Positions 1 to 54,881 of a stretch of 64,000 nt of DNA are shown in pieces. How positions within the stretch are numbered: position 1 is the first letter of the stretch; each line of letters opens with the position of its first letter. Source of the DNA: Escherichia phage P-GXEC-L2P5; sequence record PQ843332.1; one strand, given 5' to 3'. The notes below the pieces were generated by a model. That model did not search any database and was not told where the DNA came from. It was given only the letters and a program-made list of their open reading frames with translations. Position numbers and translations under genes: made by a program.

Positions 1-66
1 TTTAAAGATATCAAGCTAATGGAGCGAATCGCGCTTGATGAAATGGCGCAACAAAACCCCGCATAA
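1..66 (+). CDS. tail assembly chaperone, C-terminal end of the frameshifted gpT-like extension (partial; 5' end outside window)
   Basis: Frame 1 reads FKDIKLMERIALDEMAQQNPA-stop; the same peptide ends the T-frame extension after the G-like chaperone at 49363-49432. Confidence 0.5.
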   Translation, partial: FKDIKLMERIALDEMAQQNPA

Positions 67-604
67 TGAAGCGGGACAAGCGGGACGTCCCGTTTTGTCC
101 CGCCCCTCAAAAACTGCATACTTATTTACTATTATTGCATAAACTAAAAGCGGGACAAGCGGGACGTCCCGATCTGGCACCCCTCTGAAAAGCGCATACC
201 TATTCAGTTTTACTGCATAAACCAAACGGGACAAAAAGCGGGACAAACAAGGGGCGGGACAAAGCGGGACAGCACCCCCGCCCCGCCAGTGCTGCCGCGG
301 GGTTTAGCCGATCGGGACAGGCGGGACAAAGCCCAGTCTTTCAGACTAGACGGGGGTCAATGGCCCCCCTCGCGCGGTTTTTAGCCGATCGGGACAGGCG
401 GGACAAAGCCCAGTCTTTCAGACTAGACGGGGGTCAATGGCCCCCCTCGTCTGAGACTGAATAAGGTTTGTTTTAAATTCGCTGATACAATGTTTCAGAC
501 TAGACGGGGGTCAATGGCCCCCCTCGTCTGAGACTGAATAAGGTTTGTTTTAAATTCGCTGATACAATGTCAACCGGCAACTGCATAAAAAAGGGGGCTG
601 CATA
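67..604. repeat. non-coding repeat module R1: GCGGGACA(A) arrays in direct and inverted orientation, GC-rich tract, repeated strong hairpin, TGCATAAA boxes
   Basis: At least 10 GCGGGACA-type 8-mers; near-palindrome GCGGGACAAGCGGGAC/GTCCCGTTTTGTCCCGC at 70-102; no plausible ORF; paralogous modules at 31353-31610 and 49433-49893. Confidence 0.7.
411..459 (+). terminator. strong stem-loop (cagtctttcagactagacggggg...cccccctcgtctgagactg), terminator-like; also at about 334-371 and 487-535 through tandem duplication
   Basis: Long GC-rich inverted repeat seen directly; no clean U-tract, so terminator function is inferred only. Confidence 0.35.
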
Positions 605-3401
605 ATGGCAGATCAAGCAGCAGGCATCACGCTAAAGGCGGATGTCGCACAAATCAGAACGGCGAATACTGTGCTTGATTCATTCGCACAGAAATCCGAG
701 AACACAGAAAACAAGGTTAAGAAATTAAACGACACACTCGGCAAATCCAAAAAGGTTACGAGTGACGCCGCGGGTGGAATGGAGAAGCTGGCGACTGAAT
801 CGCAGCGCGCCGCAGATGGCATGACGAAACAGGAGCGACTTGCCAACAGGTTAGGCATGTCGACCAAAAACCTGGGCTTTGCCTCGCGTAACGCCGCATT
901 CCAGTTACAGGATATCGCAGTTACGCTTGAGATGGGGATGCCAGTTCACCGCGTCATGCTTCAGCAGTTACCACAGCTTACCGGGGCGTTCGGTGGATTG
1001 GGTAACACGCTGCGTTATGTTGCGGGCTTCCTCGGTCCGGTAGGGATCGGCATTGCAGCACTAACGGCAACGTTAGGCGTAGGAGTGGCGGTTACGTCCC
1101 GTGCCGAAAACCAGGTCGCAGCGCTTAACAAGACGCTGGCGCTGTCGGGTAACATTTCCGGACTCACTGCAAACCAGATCCTGGTGCTATCCGAGAACGC
1201 CGAGCGCATGGGCGGGTCGTTCCGCAAGACGCGTGACACAATCCAGGCGCTGGCGGCGGCGGGTGTGAAAGCGGGTGGTGACTTCGGCGCACTGGCGACC
1301 GCAAGACGCGTGACACAATCCAGGCGCTGGCGGCGGCGGGTGTGAAAGCGGGTGGTGACTTCGGCGCACTGGGGAAGGTAGTGAATGACTTCGCGAAGGT
1401 GTCCAGCCAGCCGATCGAGGATGTGGTCGCGGCGGTGGCGAAGCTGTCAACCGACCCGGTAGGCGGCTTACGGGCATTGGCGGATAAGTATCACGTCGTA
1501 AACGAAGCGCAGATCCAGCAGGTGCAGTCACTAGTGACGGCTGGTCGCGAAACCGAAGCGGTGGCGCTGGCTAACAAAACAGCCGCGGCGTCGTTTACCA
1601 CTATGACCAACGATATTAAGTCCAACATGGGTACGCTTGAGCGGTCGATGAACGTCGTTACATCGGCAGCTAAATCTATGTGGGACGCCATCCTGGATGT
1701 GGGCCGCGCGCAGTCCTCGAATGAGTCAGAGATGAAAGCGCGTGAATCATTGCAGCGACTGACCACGGCTTACTATGCCGAGATGAAAGCGGTCAACGCT
1801 GCCGGTGGGGTGATGACCGAAGCGCAGAAAGCACGTATTAACATGCTTTATAGCGAAATGGTCGCCCAGGAGAAAGTAGTCGCGTCGCTCACCCTGCGCA
1901 ACCGTGCAGAGCGTGACAACGCCAACGCCGCGGAACAATCAGCAAAGGCGAACGAGGAGGCAAACCGCACTGCCCGCGACCGCGCCGCGTTTGAGAAGGA
2001 GTACGCAACCAACGCTAAGCGGCGCGCCGACGAGATCGCCCGCCTCAATTTGCTTAATAAGCGCGGCGTGATTGACGAGAAAGAGCTTGCCGAGGCGGTG
2101 AAGCAGGTAAACGAGCGTTACAAAGACCCCGCCCCGAAGAAGGCCGCCGCTGTTCGAGTCGATGCCGGGCTGAAAATGCTGGAAGTCGCGCGAAGCGAAC
2201 TGGCACAGCTTCGTGAGTCTGGAAAGCAGATCGAAGCCAACTCCTCGACGCAGACCCGAACGCAACGCGCTCAAGCGGCCCTAAACAAGCTGATCGCGGA
2301 TAATGAGCAGTTAATCGCAGCAAGCAAAGAAAGAGCACTAACGGCAGCAGAAAAGCAGCAGATGGTCGAATTCGGACGCGTGAAGGAAGTACGCGAGCAG
2401 ATCGTCGAAGAAGCCAAATTGCTGGACGCGAAAGAGAAGCAGGTCAAGGCGCACGCGCAGATCGACTCCTTCGTTAAGAACCAGAACGCCGAGCTAAAAG
2501 CCACCGCGGCGGGCTATGCGCTTTCCACTCGCGAAGCGGCTAACCTGCGCGAAGAATTGCAGCTAATTGACCGCCTTAAGCGGGTGGGCGCTAGTGATAC
2601 CGATATTGATCTGGCGGTGTCTAAACTGCGCGAAGTGCAGGAAGCACAGACCGGTGCTAACGCCTCACTATGGGATGGATTCAGCCGTGGGCTTAAGGAT
2701 AGCGTGGATGAAATGGGTAACGGCTATACGCAGATGACGTCACTCACAAAATTCACGTTCGGCGCTATGCAGGACACGATGAACGAGTTTTTCGAGACTG
2801 GCAAGCTGAACGCAAAGGATATGGTTAAGTCCATCCTGAGCGAATTAATCAAGCTGGCTACCTCGCAGGCGTTCAAGTCCATCGTTAGCGCTTTCGGTGG
2901 CGACGGCGGCAAAAACGGATTGTTCGGCGCTATCTTCTCGGGCCTCACCAAGAATGCGGACGGCGGAGCGTACGTGGCGACGGCGGCAAAAACGGATTGT
3001 TCGGCGCTATCTTCTCGGGCCTCACTAAGAATGCGGACGGCGGAGCTTACGCAGGGGGCAATCTCGCGGCCTATTCTGGGAAAGTGGTAAGCCAGCCTAC
3101 CTTTTTCAGTTATGGCGTCCAGGCGTTCGCTAAGGGCGCAGGATTGATGGGCGAGGCTGGTCCCGAGGCCATCATGCCGCTGAAGCGCGGGCCGGACGGG
3201 AAACTGGGCGTTGCCGCGTCTGGCGCAGGCGGTGGTATGGTCGTGACGACTAACGTTTACACGGGGACCGGTAAAACGGATACCAGTGTCAGCGGGCCGG
3301 ATCCCCGTACCGCGCAGGCGTTCGGCAAGCAAATCACCGAGGCGGTGAAGGCCGAGATCGTGAAGGCGACGAAACCGGGTGGTGTACTTTACAAACGATG
3401 A
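605..3401 (+). CDS. tail length tape measure protein (frame broken by tandem duplications near 1218-1372 and 2894-3051)
   Basis: ORFs 605-1345, 1342-3090 and 2997-3401 are contiguous; long coiled-coil Ala/Lys/Glu-rich middle; Gly-rich C-terminus; sits upstream of gpM/L/K/I/J-like genes. Confidence 0.75.
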
Positions 3402-3435
3402 TAAAATGGCCCTCACTACAACGTGGGGGCTTTTT

Positions 3436-4112
3436 ATGTCACAAGGTACAATCACACTAACGAAAGGAAGTAAGACCGTCACGGGCGCGGGAACGGCGTT
3501 CCTTAGCGAGATCGGGAAGGTACTCGTATTCGCCCGCATCGACGGCAACGACTACACCGGCAAAATTGCGGCATTCAACTCGAACACGGTCATTACTCTG
3601 AAAGATAACTGGGCCGGTCCGACGAAATCCGGTGCGGCATATGAGCTAATCGAAGCACACGACCCGCGATCAAACGAATGGCCCTATTACTGGCACCGAC
3701 GAAATCCGGTGCGGCATATGAGCTAATCGAAGCACACGACCCACGGTCAAACGAATGGCCCTATTACTGGCACATGCAATTGCAGGGCGGCGGCGACGTG
3801 CAGTTAGCTTTCCGGTCGGAGGAATTGCAATTCGGTAATGGCTACGGACAGAACATCGCGGACGGACCGAACGCAGAAACGAAACAGTTCCCCGTGCAAT
3901 TCGTCGGACTGACTACTGATAAGTGGTGCGACCCTAAACTGGTTTATAACTTTCTGCGCGGTCACTTCGTCAAGCCGTTTGTTGTCACCGCTCCAGATGG
4001 CGAAACAGGTTTATTCGTGGTCGAGCGTTCGAGCTTGTCGTACACTGACAACGGGCACTACACGGCAACTGTGTCCGCCACCCTTAAGACAGCTATTGGA
4101 TTCGTAAGATGA
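3436..4112 (+). CDS. minor tail protein, lambda gpM-like C-terminal domain (frame broken by duplication 3619-3772)
   Basis: ORFs 3379-3726 and 3678-4112; GGAGG-like RBS before ATG 3436; position between tape measure and gpL-like gene. Confidence 0.55.
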
Positions 4113-4897
4113 ATAAACTATATCGCGAGGCGACGCGCTTTGACCCATCGGGACGCGTTCGCCTGATTCACATTGACGCGCAGGACGTGGAGCCTGGCGA
4201 CGGCGCGATCGGCGCGGGCCATCACTATTTTCACTACTGCTTTATTCCGCACACTGCCGAGGATATTGCTGCCGCGGGCGGAGACGAGGACAAGCTAAAG
4301 CCCAAATCTATCTTCTTCGGCGGGCAGGAATTCGAATTCTGGCCCTTCGATTTGTCCGGCCTTAACTTCTCCACATCAACGGCAGCAGAACCGCAGCTAA
4401 CCATCGTTGATATTGGCGGCATAATCACCCGGCTGTCGCTGAATCACGACCAGCTACTGGGCGCGAAGGTTGAAATAATCGACACGTTTGCGAAGTTCCT
4501 GGATAACGGGTCGGATCCAGACCCGACGCAAAAACGTGTCCAGGAGTATTACATCGACTCACAGGTTGGGCGCAATCCAGGCAAGCAGATCACCTTCGCA
4601 TTATCCTCACCCGCGGATATGGAGGGGCAAGTAGTTCCCCGCCGCCAGATCATGAACATGTGCGAATGGGCGCTCAATGGGAAGTACGCCAGCGGGGACG
4701 GCTGCACGTGGAACCTTGCGAAGCCTGGCATCAAGTATTACGACGAGCGAGGTAATGAAGTCATCGCGATGAACATGGACCGATGCGGCGGCTGTTTGTC
4801 CGACTGTTATCTTCGATTTGGGCAAGGGCTTGCGGACCCTAAAGCGGCGGTGCTGGACTTCGGCGGCTTTCCGGGGTCCAGATTAATTAAGGGGTAG
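4109..4897 (+). CDS. minor tail protein, lambda gpL-like
   Basis: Intact 262 aa ORF; C-terminal Cys cluster CGGCLSDC; conserved position; ATGA overlap with upstream gene. Confidence 0.75.
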   Translation: MNKLYREATRFDPSGRVRLIHIDAQDVEPGDGAIGAGHHYFHYCFIPHTAEDIAAAGGDEDKLKPKSIFFGGQEFEFWPFDLSGLNFSTSTAAEPQLTIVDIGGIITRLSLNHDQLLGAKVEIIDTFAKFLDNGSDPDPTQKRVQEYYIDSQVGRNPGKQITFALSSPADMEGQVVPRRQIMNMCEWALNGKYASGDGCTWNLAKPGIKYYDERGNEVIAMNMDRCGGCLSDCYLRFGQGLADPKAAVLDFGGFPGSRLIKG

Positions 4898-4899
4898 TC

Positions 4900-5640
4900 A
4901 TGTTAACGAAGAAGGTTAAAAGCGATATCGCCGCACACGTCGCGGCATGTCTGCCGGAAGAAGCCTGCGGCCTGGTTGTCATGGTGGGCCGCAAACAAGT
5001 TTTTATCCCGTGCGTTAACGTATTCGAAGATCCTACCGGTGCGCGCTCGCGTAAGGACGCGTTTACAATCAGTGATACGGCCTGGATGGATGCTGAGGAT
5101 ATGGGCGATGTCGTTCGCGTAGTCCACTCACACCCAGGTCAGCGCGAGTTAACCCCGTCATTGGGTGACGTCAACGGCTGCAACGGCAGCGGCGTCGTCT
5201 GGACAATTACCAATGAGTATGGCGACTTTATCGAGATCGACCCGGAAGACCCGCCACTGGTGGGTCGCCGATTTGTTCTCGGAATTACGGATTGTTATGG
5301 CCTCGTTATGGACTGGCATAAAAAGCATGGCGTAAACCTGCCAGACTTCCGCGTACCGTACAACTGGTGGGAGACAGGCGAAAACCTGTATATGGACAAT
5401 TGGTATGGAGCGGGCTTCCGGGAGTGTGCGGAGAATACGCCAGGGGCGATGGTCATCATGCAGATTAGCGCGCCAGTGCCTAACCACGCCGGAATCTACC
5501 TTCCGGGCAACCAACTACTACACCATATCTACGGCAGCCTGTCGAGCGTGATCCCCTTCCGGGCAGGATTTTTCCGCGACAATGTGGTTAAATGGGTACG
5601 TCATAAAGACTTACCGTGGGATATCACAGAATGGCAATGA
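4900..5640 (+). CDS. tail assembly protein, lambda gpK-like (JAB/MPN + NlpC/P60 domains)
   Basis: Intact 246 aa ORF; HSHPGQRELTPSLGD (JAMM-like His motif) followed by Cys/His peptidase-like region; position after gpL-like gene. Confidence 0.8.
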   Translation: MLTKKVKSDIAAHVAACLPEEACGLVVMVGRKQVFIPCVNVFEDPTGARSRKDAFTISDTAWMDAEDMGDVVRVVHSHPGQRELTPSLGDVNGCNGSGVVWTITNEYGDFIEIDPEDPPLVGRRFVLGITDCYGLVMDWHKKHGVNLPDFRVPYNWWETGENLYMDNWYGAGFRECAENTPGAMVIMQISAPVPNHAGIYLPGNQLLHHIYGSLSSVIPFRAGFFRDNVVKWVRHKDLPWDITEWQ

Positions 5641-6248
5641 CCACATTTAAATTATACGGCGTCTTAGGGCGTCGTTTTGGTAAAGTGCACAAGCTGGATT
5701 GCTTCACCCCGGGCGAAGGTATCACAGGCCTATGCGTGAAGCTGCCTGGCTTACAGGACTTTCTAATGTCGGCCCACCTGGAAAATATTATGTTCAAGGT
5801 GCGCAAAGGCAATCACACAATGACCGGATACGACGAGTTAGGAGAGTTCCACGGCGACCGCGTAGTTACCATCGCACCGGTTATGACCGGCGCAAAACGC
5901 GGACTAGGCCAATTACTGGCGGGCGTAGCCATCGTGGTGGCGTCGTTCTACACCGGCGGGCTTGCTACTGCCGCTTTCGGAGCTTCCGCCGCGACCGCTG
6001 CCGCTATCGGTACGGCAACGTTTTCGTTCGGGATGTCGATGGCGCTGGGTGGCGTTATGCAATTGCTGTCACCGCAACCGAAAGGATTGCAGACACGGCA
6101 GGACGTGGATAACAAGGCGTCTTATGCGTTCGGCGGACCGGTAAACACGACCGCGCAAGGTACGGCACTTGGTGTATTATGGGGCGAGCGTGAGATCGGC
6201 GGCGCTATTATTTCCGCCGGAATCGTAACCGAGGACTTGAACGAATGA
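5631..6248 (+). CDS. tail assembly protein, lambda gpI-like
   Basis: ORF 5616-6248; N-terminal TFKLYGVLGRRFGK ubiquitin-like region, Gly/Ala-rich hydrophobic C-terminal half; overlaps gpK-like stop. Confidence 0.65.
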   Translation: MAMTTFKLYGVLGRRFGKVHKLDCFTPGEGITGLCVKLPGLQDFLMSAHLENIMFKVRKGNHTMTGYDELGEFHGDRVVTIAPVMTGAKRGLGQLLAGVAIVVASFYTGGLATAAFGASAATAAAIGTATFSFGMSMALGGVMQLLSPQPKGLQTRQDVDNKASYAFGGPVNTTAQGTALGVLWGEREIGGAIISAGIVTEDLNE

Positions 6249-6321
6249 CGATTATCTACGACGTCACAGGCCATAAAGGCGGCGGCGGCAAAGCCGGAAT
6301 CGTAACCGAGGACTTGAACGA

Positions 6322-9300
6322 ATGACGATTATCTACGACGTCACAGGCCATAAAGGCGGCGGCGGCAAACAGCACACCCCACAGGAGACGCCGGACAGCC
6401 TGCATTCGCTGGCTAAAATCCGCATCTTGCTCGCACTGGGCGAAGGTGAGTTCGAAGGCATTACCGACCCTAACGAATTACGGCAGCGCGTATACCTGGA
6501 CGGAACACCGATCCAGAACGCCGACCTGTCAGAAAACTTCCCCGGCGCGCGCGTGGAGTTCCGCCCAGGCACACAGCACCAGGACGTGATCCACGGATTT
6601 TCAGCGGTGGAAAGTGAGCAATCCGTAGGCGTAAAACTGGAAAACGGCACGCCGTGGGTGCGCCAGATTAACGACACCAGTCTTGACGCCGTGCGCATTC
6701 GAATCGGCATTCCGGCCCTGTACACCAACGAAGACAACGGCGACCTGGTGGGCGGGCGCATCGACTACAAAATCGTTGTGTATACGGACAACGCTGATCC
6801 GCGTGAGTTTACCTTCGCTGCCGTTGGTAAAACAATGTCGCTGTACGAGCGCGACCACCGCATCGAGTTACCGCCGAACGTGAATACCGGCTGGCGCGTG
6901 GAAGTTCACCGCACAACGGCAGATTCCACATCGGCGAAAGTGGTGAACGATATTCAGGTACAGTCCATCACTGAGATTATTGACGCCCGCCTGCGTTACC
7001 CGCTAACCGCGCTGTTGTTTGTGGAGTTCGACGCCAAAGCGTTCCAGAACATCCCGCGCGTGTCCATTAAGTGCAAAGGTCGCAAAGTTCTAATACCGAA
7101 CAACTACGACCCGATCAATCATACCTATGCCGGGTACTGGGACGGCACGTTTAAACGCGCATGGACGGATAACCCTGCGTGGCACTGGTACGATATTTGT
7201 ATTACTGAGCGCTTCGGCCTCGGTCGGTTAAACGCGCATGGACGGATAACCCTGCGTGGCACTGGTATGATATTTGTATTACTGAGCGCTTCGGCCTCGG
7301 TCGCCGGATCAAGCCGCAAATGCTAAACAGATATGCGCTCTACCAGATTGCGAAGCGCTGCGATCAACTGGTCAGCGACGGCAACGGCGGGCAGGAAATC
7401 CGATTTAAGAATGATATGTACATCCAGTCGCAGACCGACGCCTGGACCGTGCTTAAGGATTTAGCCGCCATCTTTGCCGGTATGACCTGGTGGGGCAACC
7501 AGATGTTGAATATTGTAAGCGATCAGCCGGTCGCAGCGGTATCGCACACTATCACCAACGCCTCGGTCATTGATGGTCGATTCGACTACGCGTCAGGGAG
7601 CCAGAAAACTCGGTATTCCACGTTCGCTGTAGCATACGGCAACCCGAAGAACCACTATGAAGATGCCATTGCTACGGGACAGCGTGTCGAACTGGTACGC
7701 CGCCATAAGATTAACCGTCTGGATATAACGGCGATCGGCTGTACGCGTGAGTCAGAAGCGCAACGCCGCGGGCACTGGGCGCTAATCTCCAACCAGCTTG
7801 ACCAGCAAGTTAGCTTTAAGGTTGGCATGGAGGGACTTTTCTTTATTCCGGGTAGTGTAGTCGCGATCGCCGATACAAACATTTCTGGCGGCTTCGAGAC
7901 ACGCGGCGGTCGCCTGTTGTCAGATCCTGGCACGCGGACTGTGCTGAACACAGACAGCGAAATCACGTTCCGCCCTGGGGATAAATTCCTGGTACGCACC
8001 GATAGCGGTAATGTGGAGACTCGCGAGATTGCCAGCGTCAACGGCAACAAGGTTACGCTAAAAACCGCACTGGACGCCGACCCGATTCCTGATCAGCCGT
8101 TTTGCGTCGATGGCAACGATATCCAGTTGCAGAAGTTCCGCATCACCGACCTGGAATATGACGACTCTACCAGCACTTTTTCAGTGCGCGGGATCGAATA
8201 CAACGATAGCAAATATGATGCCGTTGATAATGGCGCTCGCCTTGACCCAGGCATCTTTACGCAAGTTCCTGACGGCGTAATGAAGGGGCCGGAGTCCGTG
8301 ACCATTACCCCGTCGCAGATTTCATCGCAAGGCCAGCTAATCACCAACGTGGATATTGTGTTCCCGCCGGTGAAGGATGCCGTTGTTTATGAGATCCAGT
8401 GGCGACGTACCAGCTTGCAGAATATGGCGGTACAGTGGGGAAACGACTGGGTAAACATCCCCCGCACGGCATCGAACGGCGCGCACATCCCTAACGTGTT
8501 CTCCGGTAACTACCAAGCGCGCGTCCGCGCGATCGGTATGGGCGAGATTTCATCCCCGTGGGTGTCGTCCGCTATCACGCCGGTGGAAGGTCGTCTCGGC
8601 GGTCTTAACGCGCCTATCATCACCAACGCGATTTCGGGCCTTCACCAAATTTTGTGGAAGTGGAACCACAACAACGCCGCGACGGATATTTCGTACACCG
8701 AGCTTGAAGTTCGCAAGACGGGTGAAACGGAATGGAAATTCCTAACCAACGTCCCATACCCGGGGTCGGAGTATGCGCAAACGTCGCTGGAGTTCGGCAT
8801 CTATCAGCAGTTGCGCGCCCGTGTAGCGGATAAAATCGGCAACCTGTCGGACTGGTCGGCCCCGTTTGAAGGGCAGGTGAGCAGCAGTTGCGCGCCCGTG
8901 TCGCGGATAAAATCGGCAACCTGTCGGACTGGTCGGCCCCGTTTGAAGGGCAGGTGAGTGACAATGTTGACGAGTACATGAAGGGGCTGGACGACGAGTT
9001 CTTGACTTCTGAGGACGGTAAACGCTTCCAGGAAGCGATCGACACCATGCCGCAAGGCATTTATGAGGCTATGCTCACCGACGCACAGCAATTGTTTAAC
9101 GCCCGCGCCGAGTACAAGGGGATTTATGCAGAAATCTCGGTCGCGTATAACGTGGCGGCAGATGCCCACCAGGCGGTAGCGCAACTGGAAACGTTGATCG
9201 GTACTCGCCTTGACGATGCGGAAGCGGCAATCCACACGTTGCAGACCGCGCAAAGCACGCACGAGCAAGCGTTCGCCCAGTACCAACAAACTGTTGCCGC

Positions 9301-9826
9301 TAAGTTCGGTCAGCAGTCCGCCGCGATCGAGCAGAAGATGACGTCCTCGTTTAACCACTCCGGTGGTAGCGCCACATACAGCCTTAAGGCGGGTGTGACG
9401 TATAACGGTACTTACTATGATGCGGGTATGCAGCTTTCCGTTGTAACGTCGGGCAGCGCGGTTAAATCTCGTATCGCGTTCAAAGCCGACCAGTTCTACA
9501 TCATGCACCCATCTAATGGGTCGCTTTCGTCCGCGTTCATCGTCGACGGAGGACAGGTGTACATCGACACGGCACGAATCAAGAACGCGTCCATTAACTT
9601 CGCACAGATCACGGACACGCTGCGGTCTAATAACTTCGTTGCGGGGTCGTCAGGGTGGAACCTGCCTAAATCGGGTAACGCGGAATTGAACAACGTAACG
9701 GTCCGCGGCAACCTGTACGCCACATCGGGTAACTTCGGGTTTTCTGGTGGGACCGTGACGATCGACAAGACAGGCGTAAACGTGCCGTTACCTGGCGGGG
9801 GGAGGGTGAAAGTCGGGACGTGGTAA
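6322..9826 (+). CDS. host specificity / tail tip protein, lambda gpJ-like (frame broken by duplications near 7151-7304 and 8806-8959; start codon duplicated at 6245 and 6322)
   Basis: ORFs 6322-7326, 7320-8957 and 8888-9826 are contiguous, about 1,100 aa after removing duplicates; conserved gpJ-like N-terminus MTIIYDVTGHKGGGGKQHTP; position after gpI-like gene. Confidence 0.8.
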
Positions 9827-9831
9827 ATGCG

Positions 9832-9853
9832 AAGGGGCCATCCGGCCCCTTTT
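9832..9853 (+). terminator. rho-independent terminator (aaggggccatccggcccctttt), usable on both strands
   Basis: GC stem, short loop, T-run; sits between convergent genes. Confidence 0.6.
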
Positions 9854-10818
9854 CAATACATATTCGGGATGACGAGTAGCGGGGTGGGTACGGCAATATT
9901 TTTACCTGGCATCTGGAATTGCTGCCGTGAGTAGTTGCCGATGACGCGGTTTTTAGCGACGCGCACATTATTACCCGCCATGCGTATTCCGTTCATGCGG
10001 ACGTGGTTATAGCCCCCGTTGTTCTGAATCAGCGCGCCGGTGTATGAAAGCTGGATCAGGCTGTTTCCTATATTCTGGTCGCCCGTGCCGATGTTAATCG
10101 TGCGGTCATATACGAACGGCTTGTTCACCGTCGAGAACGTGACCTGATTCTGGTTATTTGTCATAGTGATCCCGGCCCCTGGCGTGGGTGGTGTATTGTT
10201 GAATATGACAAGGTCCATGTCCACCGAAGCCGCCACATCGTCGATGCCACCATAGGCCGCGTTGCGGACGATAATACTGCCACCATCGAAGCCTACTGAT
10301 ACGTTGCCGTCATCCCAGCGGGCGAACGGGACACCGCTAACGGGCAAGGCCATACTACCGTTGACGCGTACTCGCTGTGCGTATCGGCAGGTCATTAGCT
10401 TAGACACGTTGGATATGGCGGTGAAGTCCGTCGAGTTCTCCACCAGTAAGCCCGCGTTGCGTGAACCAACCGGCAGCACTTCCATTATGACGCCAGCCCA
10501 TTGTGGTAAGCCAGAGTACGCGCCATACGCATCCTCCCCGCGCAGGGTGATACCACTATTCCCGTTGCGGGTAACAGACGTAACGTAAAACGGGTCGGGA
10601 ATTACCAGGGTCTGGTCGAATACCTCAATCACTTCTACCGGGCGAGTGAGCGCGACGACGACCTGCGACCCCTCCGTAAGCGGGGTGTTAATGGTTAGCG
10701 TCTTGTTGGACTGTGCCCGCTGGTTAAAGCTGGTGCAGTATGCTGGCGCGCGAAGCCCTGCGGTGATCTCCATGCGCGGTCTTCCGTCGTTGTAGTCGAT
10801 AAGTATTCCAGCACCCAT
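9853..10818 (-). CDS. hypothetical protein, Asn/Gly-rich with beta-helix-like repeats; co-transcribed with upstream lipoprotein
   Basis: Intact 324 aa ORF; start overlaps lipoprotein stop; repeated N-x-x-(V/I)-x-N segments; absent from second genome copy. Confidence 0.45.
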   Translation of the reverse strand: MGAGILIDYNDGRPRMEITAGLRAPAYCTSFNQRAQSNKTLTINTPLTEGSQVVVALTRPVEVIEVFDQTLVIPDPFYVTSVTRNGNSGITLRGEDAYGAYSGLPQWAGVIMEVLPVGSRNAGLLVENSTDFTAISNVSKLMTCRYAQRVRVNGSMALPVSGVPFARWDDGNVSVGFDGGSIIVRNAAYGGIDDVAASVDMDLVIFNNTPPTPGAGITMTNNQNQVTFSTVNKPFVYDRTINIGTGDQNIGNSLIQLSYTGALIQNNGGYNHVRMNGIRMAGNNVRVAKNRVIGNYSRQQFQMPGKNIAVPTPLLVIPNMY

Positions 10819-10820
10819 TA

Positions 10821-11042
10821 TTACCACTCCCGTGATTTAACTGATACTGTGCCTGAGAAATTGCCGTCGCTATCTGAAGACAGCCCAGTGAATCGCATGT
10901 CCACATCTCCTGCCGGGACTTTTTGCCCATCAACGTAGCGCAACATGCAGCTACCGTACGCAACCGTAATGCACTCGCCGTTGTTGCGTTCTACGGCGCA
11001 ACCGGATAAAAGAACCGCACAAATCATAATTAAAGTTTTCAT
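10821..11042 (-). CDS. small lipoprotein, candidate Llp/Cor-like superinfection exclusion protein
   Basis: Signal peptide MKTLIMICAVLLSGC with lipobox LSGC; AGGGGA RBS; lies between gpJ-like gene and tail fibre; mature part differs completely from paralogue at 61449-61667. Confidence 0.5.
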   Translation of the reverse strand: MKTLIMICAVLLSGCAVERNNGECITVAYGSCMLRYVDGQKVPAGDVDMRFTGLSSDSDGNFSGTVSVKSREW

Positions 11043-11122
11043 GGTATCATCCCCTATATTTGGTTGAGTTTTAGTATTACACCGCTCAACCAGGATTGCA
11101 ACCAATTTAAGAGGATTTAGCT

Positions 11123-12901
11123 ATGGCAGCGGGTACGCTATCCGTAACGAACAATAGCAAGGCTGTAGTAGGGGTCGGCACAACGTTTACCGCGTTTAAA
11201 GCGGGCGACTTCTTAACGCTGGTGGTAGGACAAGTCCCATACACCGTGGCAATCGCGTCCATTGAAAGCGCAACCGCGCTCACGCTGGTACTGCCGTTCG
11301 ACGGCCCAACGGCAACCGGCCTTGCGTGGGATGGCGTTAAGCGCGATACCATGTCGCTGGCAACGATGGGCGTTACCGTACAGGCCCAAAAAGCATTGCG
11401 CTTGATGATTGCAGATGAAAACAACTGGCGTGCAATCTTCGGCGATGCTGAAGAAATCACAGTCACGCTCCCGAACGGGCAAGTTATGCAGGGTATGTCG
11501 TGGGGCTACCTGTCGTCTTTGCTGAAGGAAGTAGACCCCGTTGAGATGCGCAACCTGCAACAACAAGCCGCCGCATCGGAAGCAGCCGCGCAAGGATTCC
11601 GTAACGAGGCGGAAGGCTTCAAGAACGACGCCAACACCATCAAGACGCAGACCAGCCAACTTAAGGCAGATACGCAGGCTATCAAGGACCAAACGAATCA
11701 GATCAAGACTGACACTGGCGTTATTCGTGATGAAGCCAATACCGCGAAGGAGGACGCGCAATCTGCCCGCACTGCCGCGCAAGGATTTCGCAATGAGGCT
11801 GAACAATTCGCTAATAGTGTTAACCCGGAAAACCTACTTGCGAAGGCCAACAACTTAAGTGATGTTGCGGATGTGGCTGTGGCGCGCGAAAACATTGGCG
11901 TAGACCGCCTAACGCAAAACATAACCAGCGGCGAAACACAAATCAGGACTGCGGCGAAGAATAAATGGATCTTCGTTAAGGAAAATGGCGACTGGGGCGG
12001 GTGGGATAATGCCAACAATAAAGCCATGCCGCTGCCGATTGCATTCGGTGGTACGGGGCGCGGCGATAACGTCGCCGAGTTCCGCCAATTCAAATCAAAC
12101 GGCGACACCCAAGATGGGTTAATCATTACGCAGAACGGGTCTGGATTTGGTGGTGTATGCTGGGGGGATTCCGCCAATAAAGTACGCTGGCGCATGGGGA
12201 TTAACGACGCCGCGGGTAATTTTAAGTTGCACTCATATGACGCGTCGGGCGCGTACCGCGATACCTTTATGGAGATCTCTGGATCGGGGATAAGCGGCAT
12301 GGTGTGTCATCGAGATATCATGGTCCGCCCAACAGAGACAGTTCCAGTGTTGTCTTTCGTCCTAAACAACGGAAAAGCTACCGTCCCGGCTGGTAACGTC
12401 CGCACGATGTGGGATACGGTTAACATCAATAGTAATATAATCTATAAATATTTTGAGAAGGGAGACGGCACTGGCTTCACAGTCAACTGGCCCTCATCTG
12501 GTGGTGTTATTGCCCTCCAGGGTACATCAGGAAGGGACTTTAAGAAAGATATTACCGACGCGGACGTTACAGAAGCGGTTGCACGCATTGAACAAATGCG
12601 CATGGTGCGCTACGTGTATAAGGACGATGTGCAGGAGCGCGTCCGCTTCGGCATCATTGCCGAGGAAGCAGAAGAGATTGCGCCTCAATACATCAAACAC
12701 CGTGAGGAGACGTACGATGTGGAGGTGGACCCCGAGACTAACGCCATCGTCGGGGGTAAGACGCGCGACCGTCCGTCGGTAGACGTTAACCCTATCGTGA
12801 TGGACTTGATGGGGTGCGCACAATATGCGATCGCTGAGTGTAAACGCCTGGCGGCGGAAGTGGAGGATTTGAAAGCCGAGATCGCGGCGTTGAAGAAATA
12901 A
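11123..12901 (+). CDS. tail fibre protein with C-terminal intramolecular chaperone (peptidase S74-like) domain
   Basis: Intact 592 aa ORF; coiled repeat region; C-terminal ...RFGIIAEEAEEIAPQYIK...DLKAEIAALKK resembles the auto-cleaving chaperone domain of endosialidase and L-shaped tail fibres. Confidence 0.7.
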   Translation: MAAGTLSVTNNSKAVVGVGTTFTAFKAGDFLTLVVGQVPYTVAIASIESATALTLVLPFDGPTATGLAWDGVKRDTMSLATMGVTVQAQKALRLMIADENNWRAIFGDAEEITVTLPNGQVMQGMSWGYLSSLLKEVDPVEMRNLQQQAAASEAAAQGFRNEAEGFKNDANTIKTQTSQLKADTQAIKDQTNQIKTDTGVIRDEANTAKEDAQSARTAAQGFRNEAEQFANSVNPENLLAKANNLSDVADVAVARENIGVDRLTQNITSGETQIRTAAKNKWIFVKENGDWGGWDNANNKAMPLPIAFGGTGRGDNVAEFRQFKSNGDTQDGLIITQNGSGFGGVCWGDSANKVRWRMGINDAAGNFKLHSYDASGAYRDTFMEISGSGISGMVCHRDIMVRPTETVPVLSFVLNNGKATVPAGNVRTMWDTVNINSNIIYKYFEKGDGTGFTVNWPSSGGVIALQGTSGRDFKKDITDADVTEAVARIEQMRMVRYVYKDDVQERVRFGIIAEEAEEIAPQYIKHREETYDVEVDPETNAIVGGKTRDRPSVDVNPIVMDLMGCAQYAIAECKRLAAEVEDLKAEIAALKK

Positions 12902-12905
12902 ATAG

Positions 12906-12930
12906 AAGGGGCCATGCGGCCCCTTTTTTA
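12906..12930 (+). terminator. rho-independent terminator (aaggggccatgcggcccctttttta), bidirectional
   Basis: Perfect GC stem plus T-run between convergent genes. Confidence 0.65.
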
Positions 12931-13580
12931 GTTTGAGTTTTCCCAGTCCATTTTGCGCCGCACCAGATGGCTTTCGTAATATTCCTTGCCCTCAACTTCC
13001 ACTAAGGGCCAATCGTTAACAATCACGTACGGTTCCGCAATATCCTCAATCACGCCGTGCGCGCTTTGCGGCCCTAACGACACGCCCACCAGGATAACAC
13101 CGGCAACACGACGGGCAAGATACTCACGAGCGCAGCGCGCCTCTACCAGTCCGCGACGGATGCCGCTGGTGGCCTTAACTTCGTAGGTCCATACGGCATC
13201 GATCACATGCTCGCGGAAGTCGGGACCGGACTTCACCTTGCGCTTGCCGACCATGATGATATCGCCGCGACGGCATCGATCACATGCTCGCGGAAGTCGG
13301 GACCGGACTTCACCTTGCGCTTGCCGACCATGATGATATCGCCGCGGTCAATGGTATTGGCGCTAAACAGGCCGGTACGCATGAGCAAGCCTTGAGGAAT
13401 ACAACTGCGCCCTCCTGCCTGCCCTTCAAGATACATGCCTGCAAACATCTCGCCCAGCACACCGACCAGTCGGCTTTGCTTGCACGCGTCAGACTTTAAG
13501 CGCCACTGGTCAAACTCGATGCTTGCTATCATTGCCGCCAGGTGGAATTGTTTACCGGATATTTCATATTCGCCGTACAT
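12928..13580 (-). CDS. hypothetical protein, possible PD-(D/E)xK-type nuclease fold (frame broken by duplication near 13195-13345)
   Basis: ORFs 13233-13580 and 12928-13254 are contiguous; GDII...YEVK resembles D...(E)xK; homologue at 63627-64000. Confidence 0.3.
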
Positions 13581-14348: not shown

Positions 14349-14370
14349 TAGTGCAACCAACCTATTGGTT
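14349..14370. promoter_or_regulatory. perfect palindrome TGCAACCAA-TAGG-TTGGTTGCA (operator or intercistronic hairpin)
   Basis: 9-bp perfect inverted repeat seen directly; overlaps the stop codon of the HAD-like gene; same TTGGTTGCA core recurs in other intergenic regions. Confidence 0.5.
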
Positions 14371-14909
14371 GCAAGTGAATTTTGCAACGTTTATTGCGTA
14401 AATTTTCGGGACCAAATCACCACACGCCCGACGAATTGCCGCGATGTTCTTCTCGCAATCTTCAATGATGACCAGTTCAGACACGTCCGCGTAGCAGACC
14501 ATTTTGAACACGGCGCACGCTTTAAACTCAGGCGGCGTTCAATGATGACCAGTTCAGACACGTCCGCGTAGCAGACCATTTTGAACACGGCGCACGCCTT
14601 AAACTCTGGCGGCGGGGTGTCGTCCAGCATGTGGCGCATAAACAACCGGCCTACGGGGAAGACCTCCAATTGCTCGGCGGTGGTGTCCCAGCATTCTCGC
14701 TGCCGGTTGGTCAGATATGCGATCTCGAAGCCTTGCTCTTTATACATGCGCAGTAGCGGCAGCATATCCATGTTCAGGTCTTCGCGGACGTGCGCCTTGT
14801 GCCACTTCGCCCAAAAGGTGGATTTAGTTTTTATCCCCGGCACCAGGTCGGCGCGCGCATCGCTTGATCCATTAATAACGCCATCCAGGTCACAAATCAG
14901 TAATTTCAT
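14356..14909 (-). CDS. HAD-superfamily phosphatase (polynucleotide 3'-phosphatase / nucleotidase-like); frame broken by duplication near 14460-14615, start duplicated near 14853-15005
   Basis: N-terminal MKLLICDLDGVI (HAD motif I DxDG), downstream YLTNR and Lys motifs; GAGGAA RBS. Confidence 0.55.
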
Positions 14910-15815: not shown

Positions 15816-16280
15816 TCACTCTTCTGCATGGTCTGTGTCTATCGCATAAAGTGGAGTCTTACCACCTTTATTGATGACGCGCTGCACGCGCTTTGCTTCT
15901 TCGACACTAAGCGGGCGCGCGTTATGGTAGATGCTGCCGTTTGTAGGGTTGCGCCACGCCATGAGCACAAGGTCTTTACGGTCGATCTTCGTTGTGCGAC
16001 CTTTTGGGCGCACGTACTCCTCGGCACGTTTGCAATGCTCGCGCAAACCTTCGGCAGTGATGCGGTTTAGTGCAACGCTGGTTGTGTATCCGGTGCGCTG
16101 CATAATCCCCATCAATTCGAAAAGCAGTTCGAAACGCTCCTCTAGCTCCTGGCGCACTTTCTTCTCTCCTTCATATAGCGCCTGGTTGGTGTCAGCCACC
16201 GCGTTCGCACGTTCGGCCTGTTCGCGGGCTTCGAGGCATTGCGCGGCCCAGTAATTTTTCTCTTCTTGTAAAATTTTCAT
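15816..16280 (-). CDS. hypothetical protein with N-terminal coiled coil
   Basis: 154 aa ORF; stop overlaps Dam-like start; terminator immediately upstream. Confidence 0.4.
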   Translation of the reverse strand: MKILQEEKNYWAAQCLEAREQAERANAVADTNQALYEGEKKVRQELEERFELLFELMGIMQRTGYTTSVALNRITAEGLREHCKRAEEYVRPKGRTTKIDRKDLVLMAWRNPTNGSIYHNARPLSVEEAKRVQRVINKGGKTPLYAIDTDHAEE

Positions 16281-16297: not shown

Positions 16298-16326
16298 TTA
16301 AAAAGGGCGTCCAAACCGGACACCCT
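16298..16326 (-). terminator. rho-independent terminator on minus strand (gggtgtccggtttggacgccc + ttttta)
   Basis: Stem-loop followed by T-run when read on the minus strand. Confidence 0.5.
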
Positions 16327-16328
16327 CA

Positions 16329-16361
16329 ATATAATGCAACCAATCTAATTATGCAACCAAT
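16329..16361 (-). promoter_or_regulatory. two direct copies of ATTGGTTGCA (minus-strand orientation) upstream of gene 15816-16280
   Basis: TGCAACCAAT at 16335-16344 and 16352-16361 on plus strand; same motif in at least five other intergenic sites. Confidence 0.45.
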
Positions 16362-19663: not shown

Positions 19664-19942
19664 CTATGCGACCAATTCAGCAACCAATAAATCGCAGTCG
19701 GATATGTTGTCGATAACGCGAACGTCAGCACCGCGGCGGGCCATTCGCTCATGTTCACGTACCTGGTGCGGCTTCGGTTTTCCTCCGGGGCGCTTCACTT
19801 CGACGAACACTATTTTGCCGTTGATGATAATAATCAGGTCGGGCGCACCCGCGCGCCCCTCCCATGCCAGTTTTCGGCAGAAGCCGCCAACCTCTTTCAC
19901 CCGTCGCATCAGGTGGCTTTGAATCTTGCCTTCTGGTGTCAT
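19664..19942 (-). CDS. VRR-NUC domain nuclease
   Basis: GAPDLIIIINGKIVFVEVKRPGGKPKPHQ matches VRR-NUC signature (PD...E-V-K). Confidence 0.6.
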   Translation of the reverse strand: MTPEGKIQSHLMRRVKEVGGFCRKLAWEGRAGAPDLIIIINGKIVFVEVKRPGGKPKPHQVREHERMARRGADVRVIDNISDCDLLVAELVA

Positions 19943-24175: not shown

Positions 24176-24850
24176 TTAACGGCGGCGACGTTTACGTGGC
24201 GCTTCGTCTTCGTCGTCGTCTTCGTCATCGTCATCACGACGTTTTGACTTTTTGGACTTACGCGGGCTTTCATCTTCGTCATCGTCGCCCAGGTCTTCGT
24301 CGGAACATGAAGACCCGCCACCGCCGAAGGCTTCGCCGTCATCACGGAAGCGCATACCCAGCAGACCACAGCCTAAGCCTTTGCCGTTGGTATTGTTCCA
24401 GGCCCAAATATCTAAGGAAACGTTGCAATAGCAACCGGAATAGATTTCCTTCCCTTCGATTTCGTCGCCGTCGATGGTCAGACCCTGCTCCGTCTGCTTC
24501 TCGCCTTCGGAAGTCTGGATGATCGGCTGTTTGAACGATTTGGCGTTGATGTACAACATGCCTTCGAATTCTTCGGTTACTTCGTCGCGCTCGTCACCGT
24601 CGCGAACTGCGCATTCCTTAGAATCCTGGGCGTAGTGGCGGTCCATCCACTTATCGGCATTCTTCTCGGATTTCAGCTTGTCGGTGAGCACTGCGCGCGC
24701 TGCCGCTTCCACTTTGTCCACCTGCGGATCTTCTTTATCAAGAAGAATCACGGCGCGGTATGCCGGTTTTTGTCCATCCTGTTTAGGGGTATCACGTTCC
24801 CAAATTTTAAGGAAACATACACGCACATTTTTCAGGTTGACTTTAGCCAT
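24176..24850 (-). CDS. single-stranded DNA-binding protein candidate, DUF2815-like with acidic C-terminal tail
   Basis: MAKVNLKNVRVCFLKIWE...IYSGCYCNVSLDIWAWN...GKGLGCGLLGMRFRDDGEAFGG followed by D/E-rich tail; GAGGAA RBS; C-terminus affected by the triplicated unit. Confidence 0.5.
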   Translation of the reverse strand: MAKVNLKNVRVCFLKIWERDTPKQDGQKPAYRAVILLDKEDPQVDKVEAAARAVLTDKLKSEKNADKWMDRHYAQDSKECAVRDGDERDEVTEEFEGMLYINAKSFKQPIIQTSEGEKQTEQGLTIDGDEIEGKEIYSGCYCNVSLDIWAWNNTNGKGLGCGLLGMRFRDDGEAFGGGGSSCSDEDLGDDDEDESPRKSKKSKRRDDDDEDDDEDEAPRKRRRR

Positions 24851-25017
24851 TTTCCAATTCCTCATTTTCACATGTATCGGGGTTATTGGAAGCCACCCCG
24901 TTCGGCTTGGTTGCTAATTTACTCCATTTTCCAATTCCTCATTTTCACATGTATCGGGGTTATTGGAAGCCACCCCGTTCGGCTTGGTTGCTAATTTACT
25001 TGGTTGCGCCTGAGCGG

Positions 25018-28040: not shown

Positions 28041-28065
28041 TATATCTCCGATTGGTTAAGTTTAG

Positions 28066-28516
28066 GTGTCGACCATTAACTTCGTCGGTGGCCTTAACAT
28101 AGTGCCAGGTTACGCGTTCTCCCTTTCGGGTAGTGGACCTGGTTATATAATCACGGTTGGGAATCCTGACACTTCGATCCGGCCCCTGCGTTGCCCCTCT
28201 CCAGTTTGCGTCCTGCATCCTGTCGACGAGGTGAATATTAGATTGGTTGCAGAAGGGAGTCAACAACTAATTTCAAAAAAAAAGCGCCGAAGCAAAATGC
28301 GACGGCGCTAACCAATAAGAGACAATGAGACGGGAGTATTATTACACGCGTGCGCGCCCGTTTCAATATTCCAAAGGAGTTGACACCACCAATAAGAGAC
28401 AATGAGACGGGAGTATTATTACACGCGTGCGCGCCCGTTTCAATATCCCAAAGGAGTTGACACCCTGCGGTTTTAGGTGTAGTTTCATTGGTCATTAACC
28501 AACCGGAGACAGAATA
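28066..28516. promoter_or_regulatory. divergent intergenic control region between minus-strand replication operon and plus-strand regulator/primase operon
   Basis: About 450 bp without a convincing ORF; TTGACA (28453-28458), 17-bp spacer, TAGTTT upstream of ATG 28517; AGATTGGTTGCA at 28240-28251; minus-strand hairpin plus T9 at about 28272-28305; internal 77-bp duplication. Confidence 0.5.
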
Positions 28517-28846
28517 ATGAATATCAACGACGCAATCGAAATGCTAACGAAGACTGTCTGCAGTGAGACTAGCCGGTCCTGGGCGTATACCGATGCCGTG
28601 GGGGCGGTGCTATTTGAAATCGAACGTCTGCGACTTACCGAAAAAGAATTGCGCGCCAGGCTGGAATTACTCAACGGTACGGCAGCCAGCAAGCTGCAAA
28701 AGCACAATGAAGAAATGGAAGAATACAAAAAACAGGTTATCCGTCTACGTGAGGAAGGTAAATCCTGGGCTATGATCGCCGAGCTAACCGGAATCAACCA
28801 GAGCACCGTGCGCTCCTGGGTACGCAATAATAAAACTTCGAAGTAA
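28517..28846 (+). CDS. HTH DNA-binding protein, putative transcriptional regulator
   Basis: 109 aa; C-terminal GKSWAMIAELTGINQSTVRSWVRNN helix-turn-helix; coiled-coil middle. Confidence 0.5.
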   Translation: MNINDAIEMLTKTVCSETSRSWAYTDAVGAVLFEIERLRLTEKELRARLELLNGTAASKLQKHNEEMEEYKKQVIRLREEGKSWAMIAELTGINQSTVRSWVRNNKTSK

Positions 28847-31352: not shown

Positions 31353-31610
31353 ATCCTATTTTGAGTGTTTTTAGCTGGTCGCATTGGTTGCCGTGCAGTA
31401 TAAATATAGTGAATAGTTATGCAATAAAACTGCATAAAGTAAGCGGGACAAAAAGCGGGACAAACTTGGGGCGGGACAAAGCGGGACAGCACCCCCGTCC
31501 CGCCCCGGATGACGCGGCCTGGAGAGGAGCGGGACAGGCGGGACAACTCCCAGTCTTTCAGACTAGACGGGGGTCAGCGGCCCCCCTCGTCTGAGACTGC
31601 ATAAAATCCG
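31353..31610. repeat. non-coding repeat module R2, paralogue of R1
   Basis: aagcgggacaaaaagcgggacaaacttggggcgggacaaagcgggacagcacccccgtcccgcc is nearly identical to R1 226-290; same hairpin at about 31553-31607. Confidence 0.7.
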
Positions 31611-31753
31611 GGATTGCAAAATACACGGCAGCACATTGGAAATCGCGGTCGTCGATGAACTGGGCAACCAATGCGAGTTGCAGAATGTGGTGTGAAAAAT
31701 GCAGTTTGCAGTCACAGCTGATAGCGATCAACTTTTTCATGCGCATGATTAAT

Positions 31754-31794
31754 ATTGGTTGCATTCATGCCAGCACCCTGCTAGATTGGTTGCA
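31754..31794 (+). promoter_or_regulatory. two copies of ATTGGTTGCA upstream of gene 31816
   Basis: ATTGGTTGCA at 31754-31763 and AGATTGGTTGCACACCAACA at 31783-31802; identical extended 17-mer upstream of minus-strand gene start 43131. Confidence 0.45.
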
Positions 31795-31815
31795 CACCAA
31801 CATGAGGGCTGAACA

Positions 31816-32151: not shown

Positions 32152-32421
32152 ATGACCCGTAGACGCGCAAAACAGCTTTCGTGGCATATCCCCCTGCATT
32201 GCATACGAATATGGGCTAAGAATGCGAATGCGGGGGACTCTGTGTACTGGTGCTATCGCGACGACGTTAAGCCGTTGACGCAGACTCGCTACTTGCACCA
32301 GTTCGCCGCGCAACATGATTTCTATGTGCGGACCTCCTTGCAACCAATGGGGATCCGTATTACATTACGCCGGAAGCCCGCAGTCGAGCGGGTAGGCAAA
32401 CACTGGAGACTGAGCAAATGA
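32152..32421 (+). CDS. hypothetical protein
   Basis: 89 aa intact ORF, tightly spaced. Confidence 0.35.
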   Translation: MTRRRAKQLSWHIPLHCIRIWAKNANAGDSVYWCYRDDVKPLTQTRYLHQFAAQHDFYVRTSLQPMGIRITLRRKPAVERVGKHWRLSK

Positions 32422-35133: not shown

Positions 35134-35136
35134 GCT

Positions 35137-35172
35137 TGACTTGCAACCAACATAGACTCTATACTGCGACCA
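35137..35172 (+). promoter_or_regulatory. sigma70-like promoter TTGACT - 18 bp - TATACT; spacer contains TGCAACCAA
   Basis: Hexamers read directly from sequence; located after terminator. Confidence 0.45.
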
Positions 35173-35336
35173 ATCAACGAGAGGAGTAATCAAGATGGCA
35201 CGTAAAGATATTTGGGTATTAGCGATCTGGACCACCACGGCTTTTATCGACATGGTTATTTGCGAATTGATATAGCCCGCCGCCATACGGACCGTGGTAT
35301 ATTGTCCGCGGTCCACTAATCAGGAATTAATTAAAT

Positions 35337-53152: not shown

Positions 53153-53186
53153 TAAAATGGCCCTCACTACAACGTGGGGGCTTTTT

Positions 53187-54879: not shown

Positions 54880-54881
54880 CC

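Follow-up and report, generated by a model that had tools for sequence, protein, structure and literature searches.

The stretch of DNA analysed here, referred to as the window, comprises 64,000 nucleotides of Escherichia phage P-GXEC-L2P5 (sequence record PQ843332.1), and its positions 16335-16361 contain a pair of copies of a short word with the core TTGGTTGCA. Both copies are on the minus strand, at an HNH/ligase-like junction upstream of the gene at 15816-16280. The first copy (16352-16361) provides, together with the T that follows it, the hexamer TTGCAT (16356-16351) as the -35 element of a predicted promoter, and the second copy (16335-16344) fills the proximal part of the spacer and stops 1 nt short of the -10 element TATATT (16333-16328). 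The two hexamers are separated by 17 nt, a spacing of the sigma-70 type, and the gene starts at 16280. Because TTGCAT matches only three of six positions, this promoter was not listed by the consensus scan described below. A hairpin, GGGTGTCC-GGTT-TGGACGCCC followed by a run of five T (16300-16325, minus strand), lies between the -10 element and the ribosome-binding site of the gene, and is either the terminator of upstream read-through or a hairpin of the 5' leader.

Megablast assigned the window to the genus Dhillonvirus, as an E. coli siphophage with about 92% identity to Escherichia phage AV129, and returned about 150 related records. All large genes of the window correspond to known AV129 genes. 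The assembly of the window was found to be flawed. Its two ends (1-13.4 kb, positions 1-13400, and 49.4-64 kb, positions 49366-64000) are laps over the tail-gene region of one genome; since these laps are only about 90% identical, an exact circular wrap of one genome was rejected, and the window probably passes more than once round one genome via two strain variants, as a chimeric metagenomic path. In addition, 81 near-exact adjacent tandem duplications of 77 bp (for example 416-569, 24847-25000 and 28311-28464) are spread over the whole window. They frameshift many genes, splitting them into overlapping pieces, raise the genome period from about 45 kb to about 50 kb, and look like untrimmed assembly-graph overlaps (k = 77). 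An origin of the motif copies in this artefact was rejected, since none of the exact copies was generated by a duplication and solely the variant at 24907, a duplicate of that at 24984, is explained by one. Four complete relatives, AV129, Sodalis phage SO-1, HK578 and the more divergent Ioannina, served as clean references.

On both strands of the window, 10 matches to ATTGGTTGCA were observed against 0.22 expected, and none of 100 shuffles reached 10, which bore out the recurrence far above chance claimed in an earlier note on this DNA. The copy at 61722 is the same genome site as the copy at 11097, so the 10 matches represent nine distinct genome sites. Of the sites listed in the earlier note, those at 16335-16344(-), 16352-16361(-), 28242-28251(+), 31754-31763(+), 31785-31794(+) and 43160-43169(-) hold exact copies, and its extended word identical at two sites was recovered as the 18-mer ATTGGTTGCACACCAACA, the same at 31785 and 43160. 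Most coordinates of its list were right, but the exact copies at 11097(-), 32339(-) and 61722(-) had been left out, and the copy given at 35141-35150 is actually GTTGGTTGCA, with one mismatch, at 35142-35151(-). Other one-mismatch copies were located at 19667/19679, 24984/25000, 31384, 31663 and 35165.

The 9-mer ATTGGTTGC is the most frequent of its length in AV129 (15 copies) and in Ioannina, and ranks second in SO-1. In AV129, 12 of the 15 copies are wholly intergenic, with intergenic DNA amounting to 6.8% of the genome (binomial p = 4e-12). A position matrix built from 20 SO-1 sites described an asymmetric site, YnnATTGGTTGC(A/C), with added information at positions -1 and -4. The sites are mostly paired, and the spacing and orientation of the pairs vary. 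The statement that nearly all copies point toward the downstream gene proved to be overstated: by manual count about 12-13 of the 20 TTGGTTGC copies in AV129 are co-oriented with the flanking genes, which is non-significant. The antisense copies (about 7 of 20) are mainly in the spacers of promoters of the opposite strand, and three of them are reversed in promoter spacers.

Conservation was analysed most closely at the 16335-16361 site, for which 18 distinct sequences were aligned. Both copies are present in all 18, bar one substitution in each of three sequences. The core of the copy at 16335-16344 is exact in 16, with TTGGCTGCA in HK578 and TTGGTTGCC in sequence L138, and the copy at 16352-16361 is conserved in 17, the exception being sequence L133 with TTGGTTGCG. 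From start to start, the two copies are 17 bp apart in every sequence, and the 7-nt linker between them is freely variable (TAATTAG, TAATCAT, TAACCGT, TAAGCCT, GTACGGG, TTGCAAG and others). The -10 element is TATATT in 16 sequences and TATCTT in two, and compensatory changes preserve the pairing of the downstream hairpin in Ioannina and in sequences L142 and L143. Ten fixed bases in a spacer are not needed by a promoter, and they form a conservation footprint like that of a protein-binding site. Each of the motif sites is found again at the homologous position in the four relatives, and in alignments of eleven motif regions the motif columns were invariant while the flanks diverged, most visibly in Ioannina. 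Judged from these alignments and counts, the motif is a real, strongly conserved and highly non-random site of the protein-binding type.

The motif sites overlap the -35 element, the spacer or the +1 position of predicted sigma-70-type promoters, in both orientations, and the promoters fall into two arrangements. The motif of class I promoters runs in the direction of transcription, with its TTGCAn as a weak -35 element 16-18 nt before a good -10 element. There is usually a second copy, which either occupies the spacer as far as the -10 element or stands behind it. Besides the 16335/16352 pair, this class includes the exact copy at 11097-11106(-), which forms TTGCAA, the -35 element of the promoter of the lipoprotein gene, 16 nt ahead of TAATAC; the exact match at 61722-61731(-) is its second-lap copy from the other strain variant, and the Ioannina promoter has gained a second copy that abuts its TATATT box. 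At the gp28/gp27 junction, the supposed perfect palindrome at 14349-14370 turned out to be an inverted pair, TGCAACCAA-CCTA-TTGGTTGCA, at 14352-14373, which lies within the minus-strand promoter TTGCAA-18-TATAGT (14374-14345). A terminator reading of this pair, flagged by a scan on the antisense strand with a weak T-run, was dropped because of the promoter overlap. A degenerate pair, TTGGTTGCT and TTGGTCGCA, is located at 19667-19687(-) 5' of the gp35 homologue (gp36/gp35), with the -35 element TTGCTG 17 nt from TATAGT. At the start of a small-gene cluster, the copy at 31754-31763(+) provides the -35 element TTGCAT of the promoter of gene 31816, with the -10 element TAGATT 17 nt on, and the second copy (31785-31802, plus strand) covers the end of the -10 and the start region and extends to the dyad TTGGT-TGCAC-ACCAA directly 5' of the ribosome-binding site.

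The last member of class I is the promoter of a moron gene on the minus strand, where the copy at 43160-43169(-), with the extension CACCAACA, ends 28 nt short of the ATG at 43131, exactly as had been claimed. In AV129, SO-1, HK578 and Ioannina, two copies flank TATATT at this promoter, and in the window one copy is retained and inspection found no clear -10 element there. The gene that occupies this slot in the window (42775-43131, minus strand) encodes 119 amino acids, has no Pfam match and shows no relation to the DnaN-like moron found in AV129 and SO-1; the moron cassette appears to have been exchanged downstream of a retained upstream region that carries the motif.

In class II, the -35 element is near consensus (TTGACT or TTGACC), the motif is reversed in the spacer, and two of the three promoters have a second copy at the start site. 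The leftward early promoter TTGACT-17-TAATAT (28263-28235, minus strand) holds the copy at 28242-28251(+) in its spacer, and the GenBank record of HK578 annotates a promoter homologous to it. The promoter TTGACC-17-TAAATT (25021-24993, minus strand), 5' of the gene of the single-stranded-DNA-binding protein, is overlapped by the pair TTGGTTGCT and TTGGTTGCG at 24984-25008(+), of which one copy is in the spacer and the other after the -10 element. The third is the plus-strand promoter of the exonuclease gene, TTGACT-18-TATACT (35136-35165), with the reversed pair TTGGTTGCA and TTGGTCGCA at 35142-35173(-), one copy abutting the -35 element and the other starting at the end of the -10 element. 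An independent consensus scan recovered all three class II promoters and the promoter at 14374-14345(-), both in the window and in HK578. No usable -10 element follows the class II copies when these are read forward, which implied that the motif is not merely a -35 module.

Not every predicted promoter carries the motif. The strong rightward early promoter TTGACA-17-TAGTTT (28457-28485) has no exact copy, and a related palindrome, TTGGT-CATTA-ACCAA (28488-28502), stands directly after its -10 element. A short leftward unit with its own terminator also has no exact copy. This unit (28276-28443, minus strand) consists of a good promoter, TTGAAA-17-(TG)AATAAT, and a strong terminator hairpin about 50 nt later; it may give rise to a short RNA, transcribed leftward and located between the divergent early promoters, and it contains UUAUUGGUUAGC, which is motif-like with one base inserted. 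Just past a terminator and 5' of the terminase genes there is a perfect extended -10 element, TGTTATAAT (36608-36616, duplicated at 36685-36693), with neither a -35 element nor the motif. It is likely to be the promoter of the structural genes, and it seems to be under a regulation different from that of the motif-bearing promoters.

The enrichment, the intergenic bias, the promoter overlap and the conservation footprint, all observed directly, argue that (A)TTGGTTGCA is the recognition site of a DNA-binding protein, that is, an operator placed inside the cores of host sigma-70-type promoters; we put the probability of this interpretation at roughly 0.62. The earlier note had proposed a phage-specific promoter or operator, and this was partly borne out, in that the sequence evidence supports the operator. 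An operator is favored because the copies overlap predicted promoter cores, are conserved beyond what a promoter needs, and occur in both orientations relative to transcription. The phage-specific promoter is unsupported, since no phage RNA polymerase gene is annotated in the three complete relatives AV129, SO-1 and HK578, since the motif is found in both orientations and always with ordinary -10 hexamers, and since three promoters hold it reversed in the spacer while TGTTATAAT and the strongest early promoter lack an exact copy. An RNA element was also rejected, because the motif has no Rfam match, is found in both orientations and is mostly upstream of the predicted transcription starts.

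The class I arrangement could suggest instead an extended or alternative -35 element that is read by host RNA polymerase together with a phage co-factor and marks a temporal class of promoters, in the manner of sigma appropriation by T4 MotA/AsiA or of lambda CII. In six promoters whose own -35 is weak, TTGCAn is exactly 16-18 nt before a good -10 element, the majority of the copies run in the direction of the genes, and the phage protein gp47, described below, has a match to Sigma70_r4_2. These features would suit such an element, which we nevertheless consider quite unlikely: in the three class II promoters the motif is reversed behind a near-consensus TTGAC -35 and, partly by inspection, has no usable -10 element when read forward; the second copies abut or follow the -10 element, where an activator would clash with the polymerase; and the copies in the non-coding region 3' of the helicase-primase gene (region B) and the copy within a gene have no -10 element. 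T4 MotA boxes resemble the class I sites in that a 9-bp asymmetric word replaces a good -35 and a normal -10 is kept, but a MotA box is centred at -30 and always co-oriented, whereas three promoters here hold the word reversed in the spacer. Pfam scans of the non-structural proteins revealed no homologue of MotA or AsiA.

If the motif is an operator, its binder would most likely be a sequence-specific protein encoded by the phage, and occupancy of the sites would govern how E. coli RNA polymerase gains entry to most of the non-structural transcription units. Among these are the genes for replication and recombination, the lipoprotein gene, the moron, the lysis region and the small early genes. 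Binding within promoter cores should at least repress transcription, and the protein might also play both parts, activating class I promoters and repressing those of class II. The same protein may also act at the cluster of five copies in the origin-like region of the window after the helicase-primase gene.

The operator interpretation has parallels in known phages. The operators of the P1 C1 repressor are asymmetric and scattered through the phage genome, overlap promoters in either orientation, and are sometimes paired, and in all these respects the motif is like them. P1 differs in being temperate and in its 17-bp operator consensus of unrelated sequence, compared with a core of 9-13 bp here, and the present phage has no integrase or recognisable immunity repressor. 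The 'stoperators' bound by gp71 of mycobacteriophage L5 are like the motif in number, about 20-30, and in being short, asymmetric and mostly intergenic sites that tend to run in the direction of transcription. Those of L5, however, are mostly in transcribed intergenic DNA and block elongation, whereas the motif is in predicted promoter cores and its orientation bias is non-significant. DnaA boxes and initiator iterons that double as operators are likewise asymmetric 9-mers, clustered at replication genes with copies in promoters, but the motif misfits the DnaA box TTATCCACA, and the origin-like regions of Dhillonvirus have a separate iteron family, CGGGACA. The Cro/C1-type operators of Guernseyvirinae (Kagunavirus GTGAATAGTTCAC) share with the motif a conserved word in the spacer, early promoters of the TTGACA..TATAGT form, and a small helix-turn-helix gene at the same position; they are palindromes for XRE-type dimers, whereas the motif is asymmetric and gp47 belongs to a different helix-turn-helix family. 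The presence of the palindrome GTGAATAGTTCAC in the spacer of TTGACA..TATAGT promoters in a Kagunavirus makes operators in promoter spacers look like a general design of this group. In Kagunavirus fEg-Eco19, GTGAATAGTTCAC or its half-site GTGAATAGTACC was found in or near such promoters at 40971, 41392, 41015, 41436, 21035 and 44720, and is probably the operator of its Cro-like protein. Literature searches returned no description of the motif or of Dhillonvirus promoters, and the GenBank annotations inspected do not describe the motif.

As binder, gp47 is the leading candidate, at somewhat less than even odds. This protein of 109 amino acids (28517-28846, plus strand), with a coiled coil and a C-terminal helix-turn-helix, is encoded by the first gene of the rightward early operon, behind the motif-less promoter, and the TTGGT-N5-ACCAA that follows this promoter was counted in favor of gp47. 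It is annotated as 'resolvase/transposase', matches HTH_23 and Sigma70_r4_2 in Pfam, and alone of the 29 scanned non-structural proteins of AV129 has a helix-turn-helix that Pfam recognises. Its family does not extend beyond Dhillonvirus-like contigs, and at its position sister phages have Cro/C1-type helix-turn-helix genes. Its N-terminal region of about 45 residues is highly variable and is replaced outright in HK578, while the coiled coil and the helix-turn-helix are almost invariant, a pattern that seems to parallel the invariance of the motif. In an AlphaFold (AF2) model with a predicted local distance difference test score (pLDDT) of 85, a 59-residue helix is followed by the helix-turn-helix, which superposes at about 0.4-1.6 Å on resolvase, DeoR, LuxR/GerE, IstA and sigma region 4 domains with non-significant E-values. 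A coiled-coil dimer of monomeric helix-turn-helix domains would match asymmetric sites that are paired at varying distances and in varying orientations. Two other proteins were rejected as binders: gp46, which is acidic (isoelectric point 4.4) and of low complexity, and gp58, which is annotated as a 'transcriptional regulator' and is a metallophosphoesterase or SbcD-like exonuclease. The gp58 homologue of the window (35337-36556) is a calcineurin-like metallophosphoesterase with the PHROG category 'DNA repair exonuclease', and its annotation as a regulator is wrong.

Several observations weigh against an operator of this kind, and most of them against gp47 in particular. All the promoters are predicted, and the consensus scan found no more promoter-like sites than in shuffled sequence. 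The antisense copy at 32339-32348(-), within the gp51 homologue, is kept in all five genomes compared and has no promoter context. Serratia phage Smarc3 has eight exact copies of TTGGTTGCA and no detectable gp47 homologue; only about one or two of the eight are intergenic, several are inside genes, and four motif copies (one exact and three with one mismatch) are at the 3' end of its helicase-primase gene. In phages phiEap-2 and TS6, the variant ATGTTGGCTGT clusters at or just past the 3' end of the helicase-primase gene, in a place homologous to region B. A distant metagenomic relative, L101, contains eight exact copies, or nine with one variant, as 10-bp tandem repeats; its syntenic replication module has about 33% identity, and the repeats follow a VapE-type primase-helicase that shares only the AEP-primase domain with the Dhillonvirus helicase-primase gp48. 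Finally, gp47 could equally target the CGGGACA iterons instead. The data from Smarc3, L101, phiEap-2 and TS6 favor a conserved replication protein over gp47 and allow a primary role centred on the origin.

For these reasons, gp48 or another conserved replication protein was considered a possible binder, with rather lower odds than gp47; another small phage protein has lower odds again, the small conserved gp45 and gp35 being candidates beside gp47 and gp48, and a host factor is improbable. Apart from its AEP-primase domain, gp48 has conserved Cys/His residues and a weakly helix-turn-helix-like C-terminus, for which homologue searches gave shallow alignments. In a separate Pfam scan AAA_25 was the only match of gp48, and PDB sequence searches with gp48 and gp46 gave nothing useful. 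In Smarc3 the place of gp47 is taken by an XRE gene, and the helicase-primase shares 45% identity with the AV129 protein. Just 3' of the helicase-primase gene of Smarc3, at 39646-39687, TGTGCGGAA-C-TTCCGCACA is followed 9 nt on by CTGTGCGGAA; these inverted repeats on TTCCGCACA are a candidate operator or origin site for the XRE protein of Smarc3.

The same distribution permits the view that the motif is primarily an iteron for a phage initiator, gp48 or a partner, at region B, and that the promoter copies are secondary and might, for example, couple origin firing or fork passage to the transcription units. Clusters just 3' of, or in the 3' end of, a primase or helicase gene in Dhillonvirus region B, Smarc3, phiEap-2, TS6 and L101, the AT-rich stretch beside the 10-bp tandem copies of L101, the persistence of the motif family where the small helix-turn-helix gene at the gp47 position is replaced, and the domain features of gp48 are in line with it. 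We regard it as unlikely, because most Dhillonvirus copies are distant from region B (which holds six copies in AV129 and five in the window) and are placed precisely in promoter cores, because the copy spacings of 12, 13, 16, 17, 23, 31, 35 and 54 bp are out of helical phase, taken as about 10-11 bp or its multiples, and because regions A and B hold dense CGGGACA iterons of their own. The helicase of L101 moreover belongs to a different family, in which only the primase domain is common to gp48. The scan of IMG/VR for tandem motif copies gave 120 loci, 114 of them outside Dhillonvirus, but such a pattern scan by construction picks iteron clusters that contain the motif word. About 10 of the loci were inspected; most were simple tandem repeats, three had motif clusters beside primase or helicase genes, and L101, L067 and L079 were informative. 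A role of the motif as a lagging-strand priming site was rejected, because by manual count its strand distribution round region B misfits a model of bidirectional forks.

Within region B, copies of TTGGTTGCC were found at 31384-31392(+), 3' of the helicase-primase gene, and, by motif scan, on the opposite strand at 31663-31671(-). The (A/G)CGGGACA(A) iterons are dense in two related non-coding regions (window 72-400, 31444-31540 and 49437-49690), which are named 'region A' (5' of the tape-measure gene) and 'region B' (3' of the helicase-primase gene) in the GenBank record of SO-1 and resemble an origin plus a second cis site. They are absent from Smarc3 and L101, and phiEap-2 has CGGACAA at the equivalent place. 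A block, GTGAATAGTTATGCA, related to GTGAATAGTTCAC, is common to region B of Dhillonvirus, phiEap-2 and TS6.

The identity of the 9-mer in E. coli and Serratia phages that do not share gp47 would also fit a site for a host protein of the Enterobacterales exploited by the phage. The motif partly resembles the half-sites of CytR (GTTGCATT) and NtrC (TGGTGCA), but no E. coli factor is known to have a consensus that fits all nine conserved positions, and the best-conserved part of the motif, TTGG, is outside the CytR octamer. In phiEap-2 and TS6, TTGGTTGCA is not enriched (no exact copy and one, respectively), and the orthologous sites now read TTGGCTGT, a drift suggestive of co-evolution between the sites and a phage protein. 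A host-protein site is thus very improbable. The consensuses of sigma-54, DnaA, CytR, NtrC, ExuR/UxuR and the P2 Cox box were compared and rejected, as none fits all conserved positions.

Because the motif is present without gp47 in relatives, the motif family is older than gp47 and is tied to the neighborhood of the helicase-primase gene, and its spread to promoters seems to have taken place in the Dhillonvirus lineage. One replication-module protein might then recognise a single ancient word of 9 bp in two settings, at the origin and in operators across the genome, an idea that we consider doubtful. If it were true, the primase-helicase would be the binder, or else a partner of it that is expressed from the strong motif-less early promoter, and origin activity would be coupled to the early-to-late transcription switch in virulent siphophages. 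In the Dhillonvirus lineage, almost all non-structural promoters would then have acquired the word from the origin. A link between the control of replication and of transcription is raised by the persistence of the motif where the helix-turn-helix gene has been replaced, and by its clustering beside the helicase-primase gene of sister groups.

Dhillonviruses are among the most frequently isolated E. coli phages, with about 150 genomes in the phage collection searched, and serve in studies of phage defence and phage therapy; their gene regulation appears to have been undescribed previously. A conserved operator on most non-structural promoters, which separates two promoter classes, would provide a concrete regulatory map. 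This map comprises the predicted promoters together with a candidate for the regulator and an early operon that would be autoregulated, and it would assist the engineering of Dhillonviruses.

An Rfam search of the whole window gave no match at the gathering threshold. The leader of the leftward early operon (window 28056-28202, about 190 nt) likewise had no Rfam match, and its fold was not better than those of shuffles (z = -0.9). This leader is 73-86% identical to unannotated DNA of T1-like phages, namely JK16, JLBYU16, WaterSpirit and Klebsiella KMI8.

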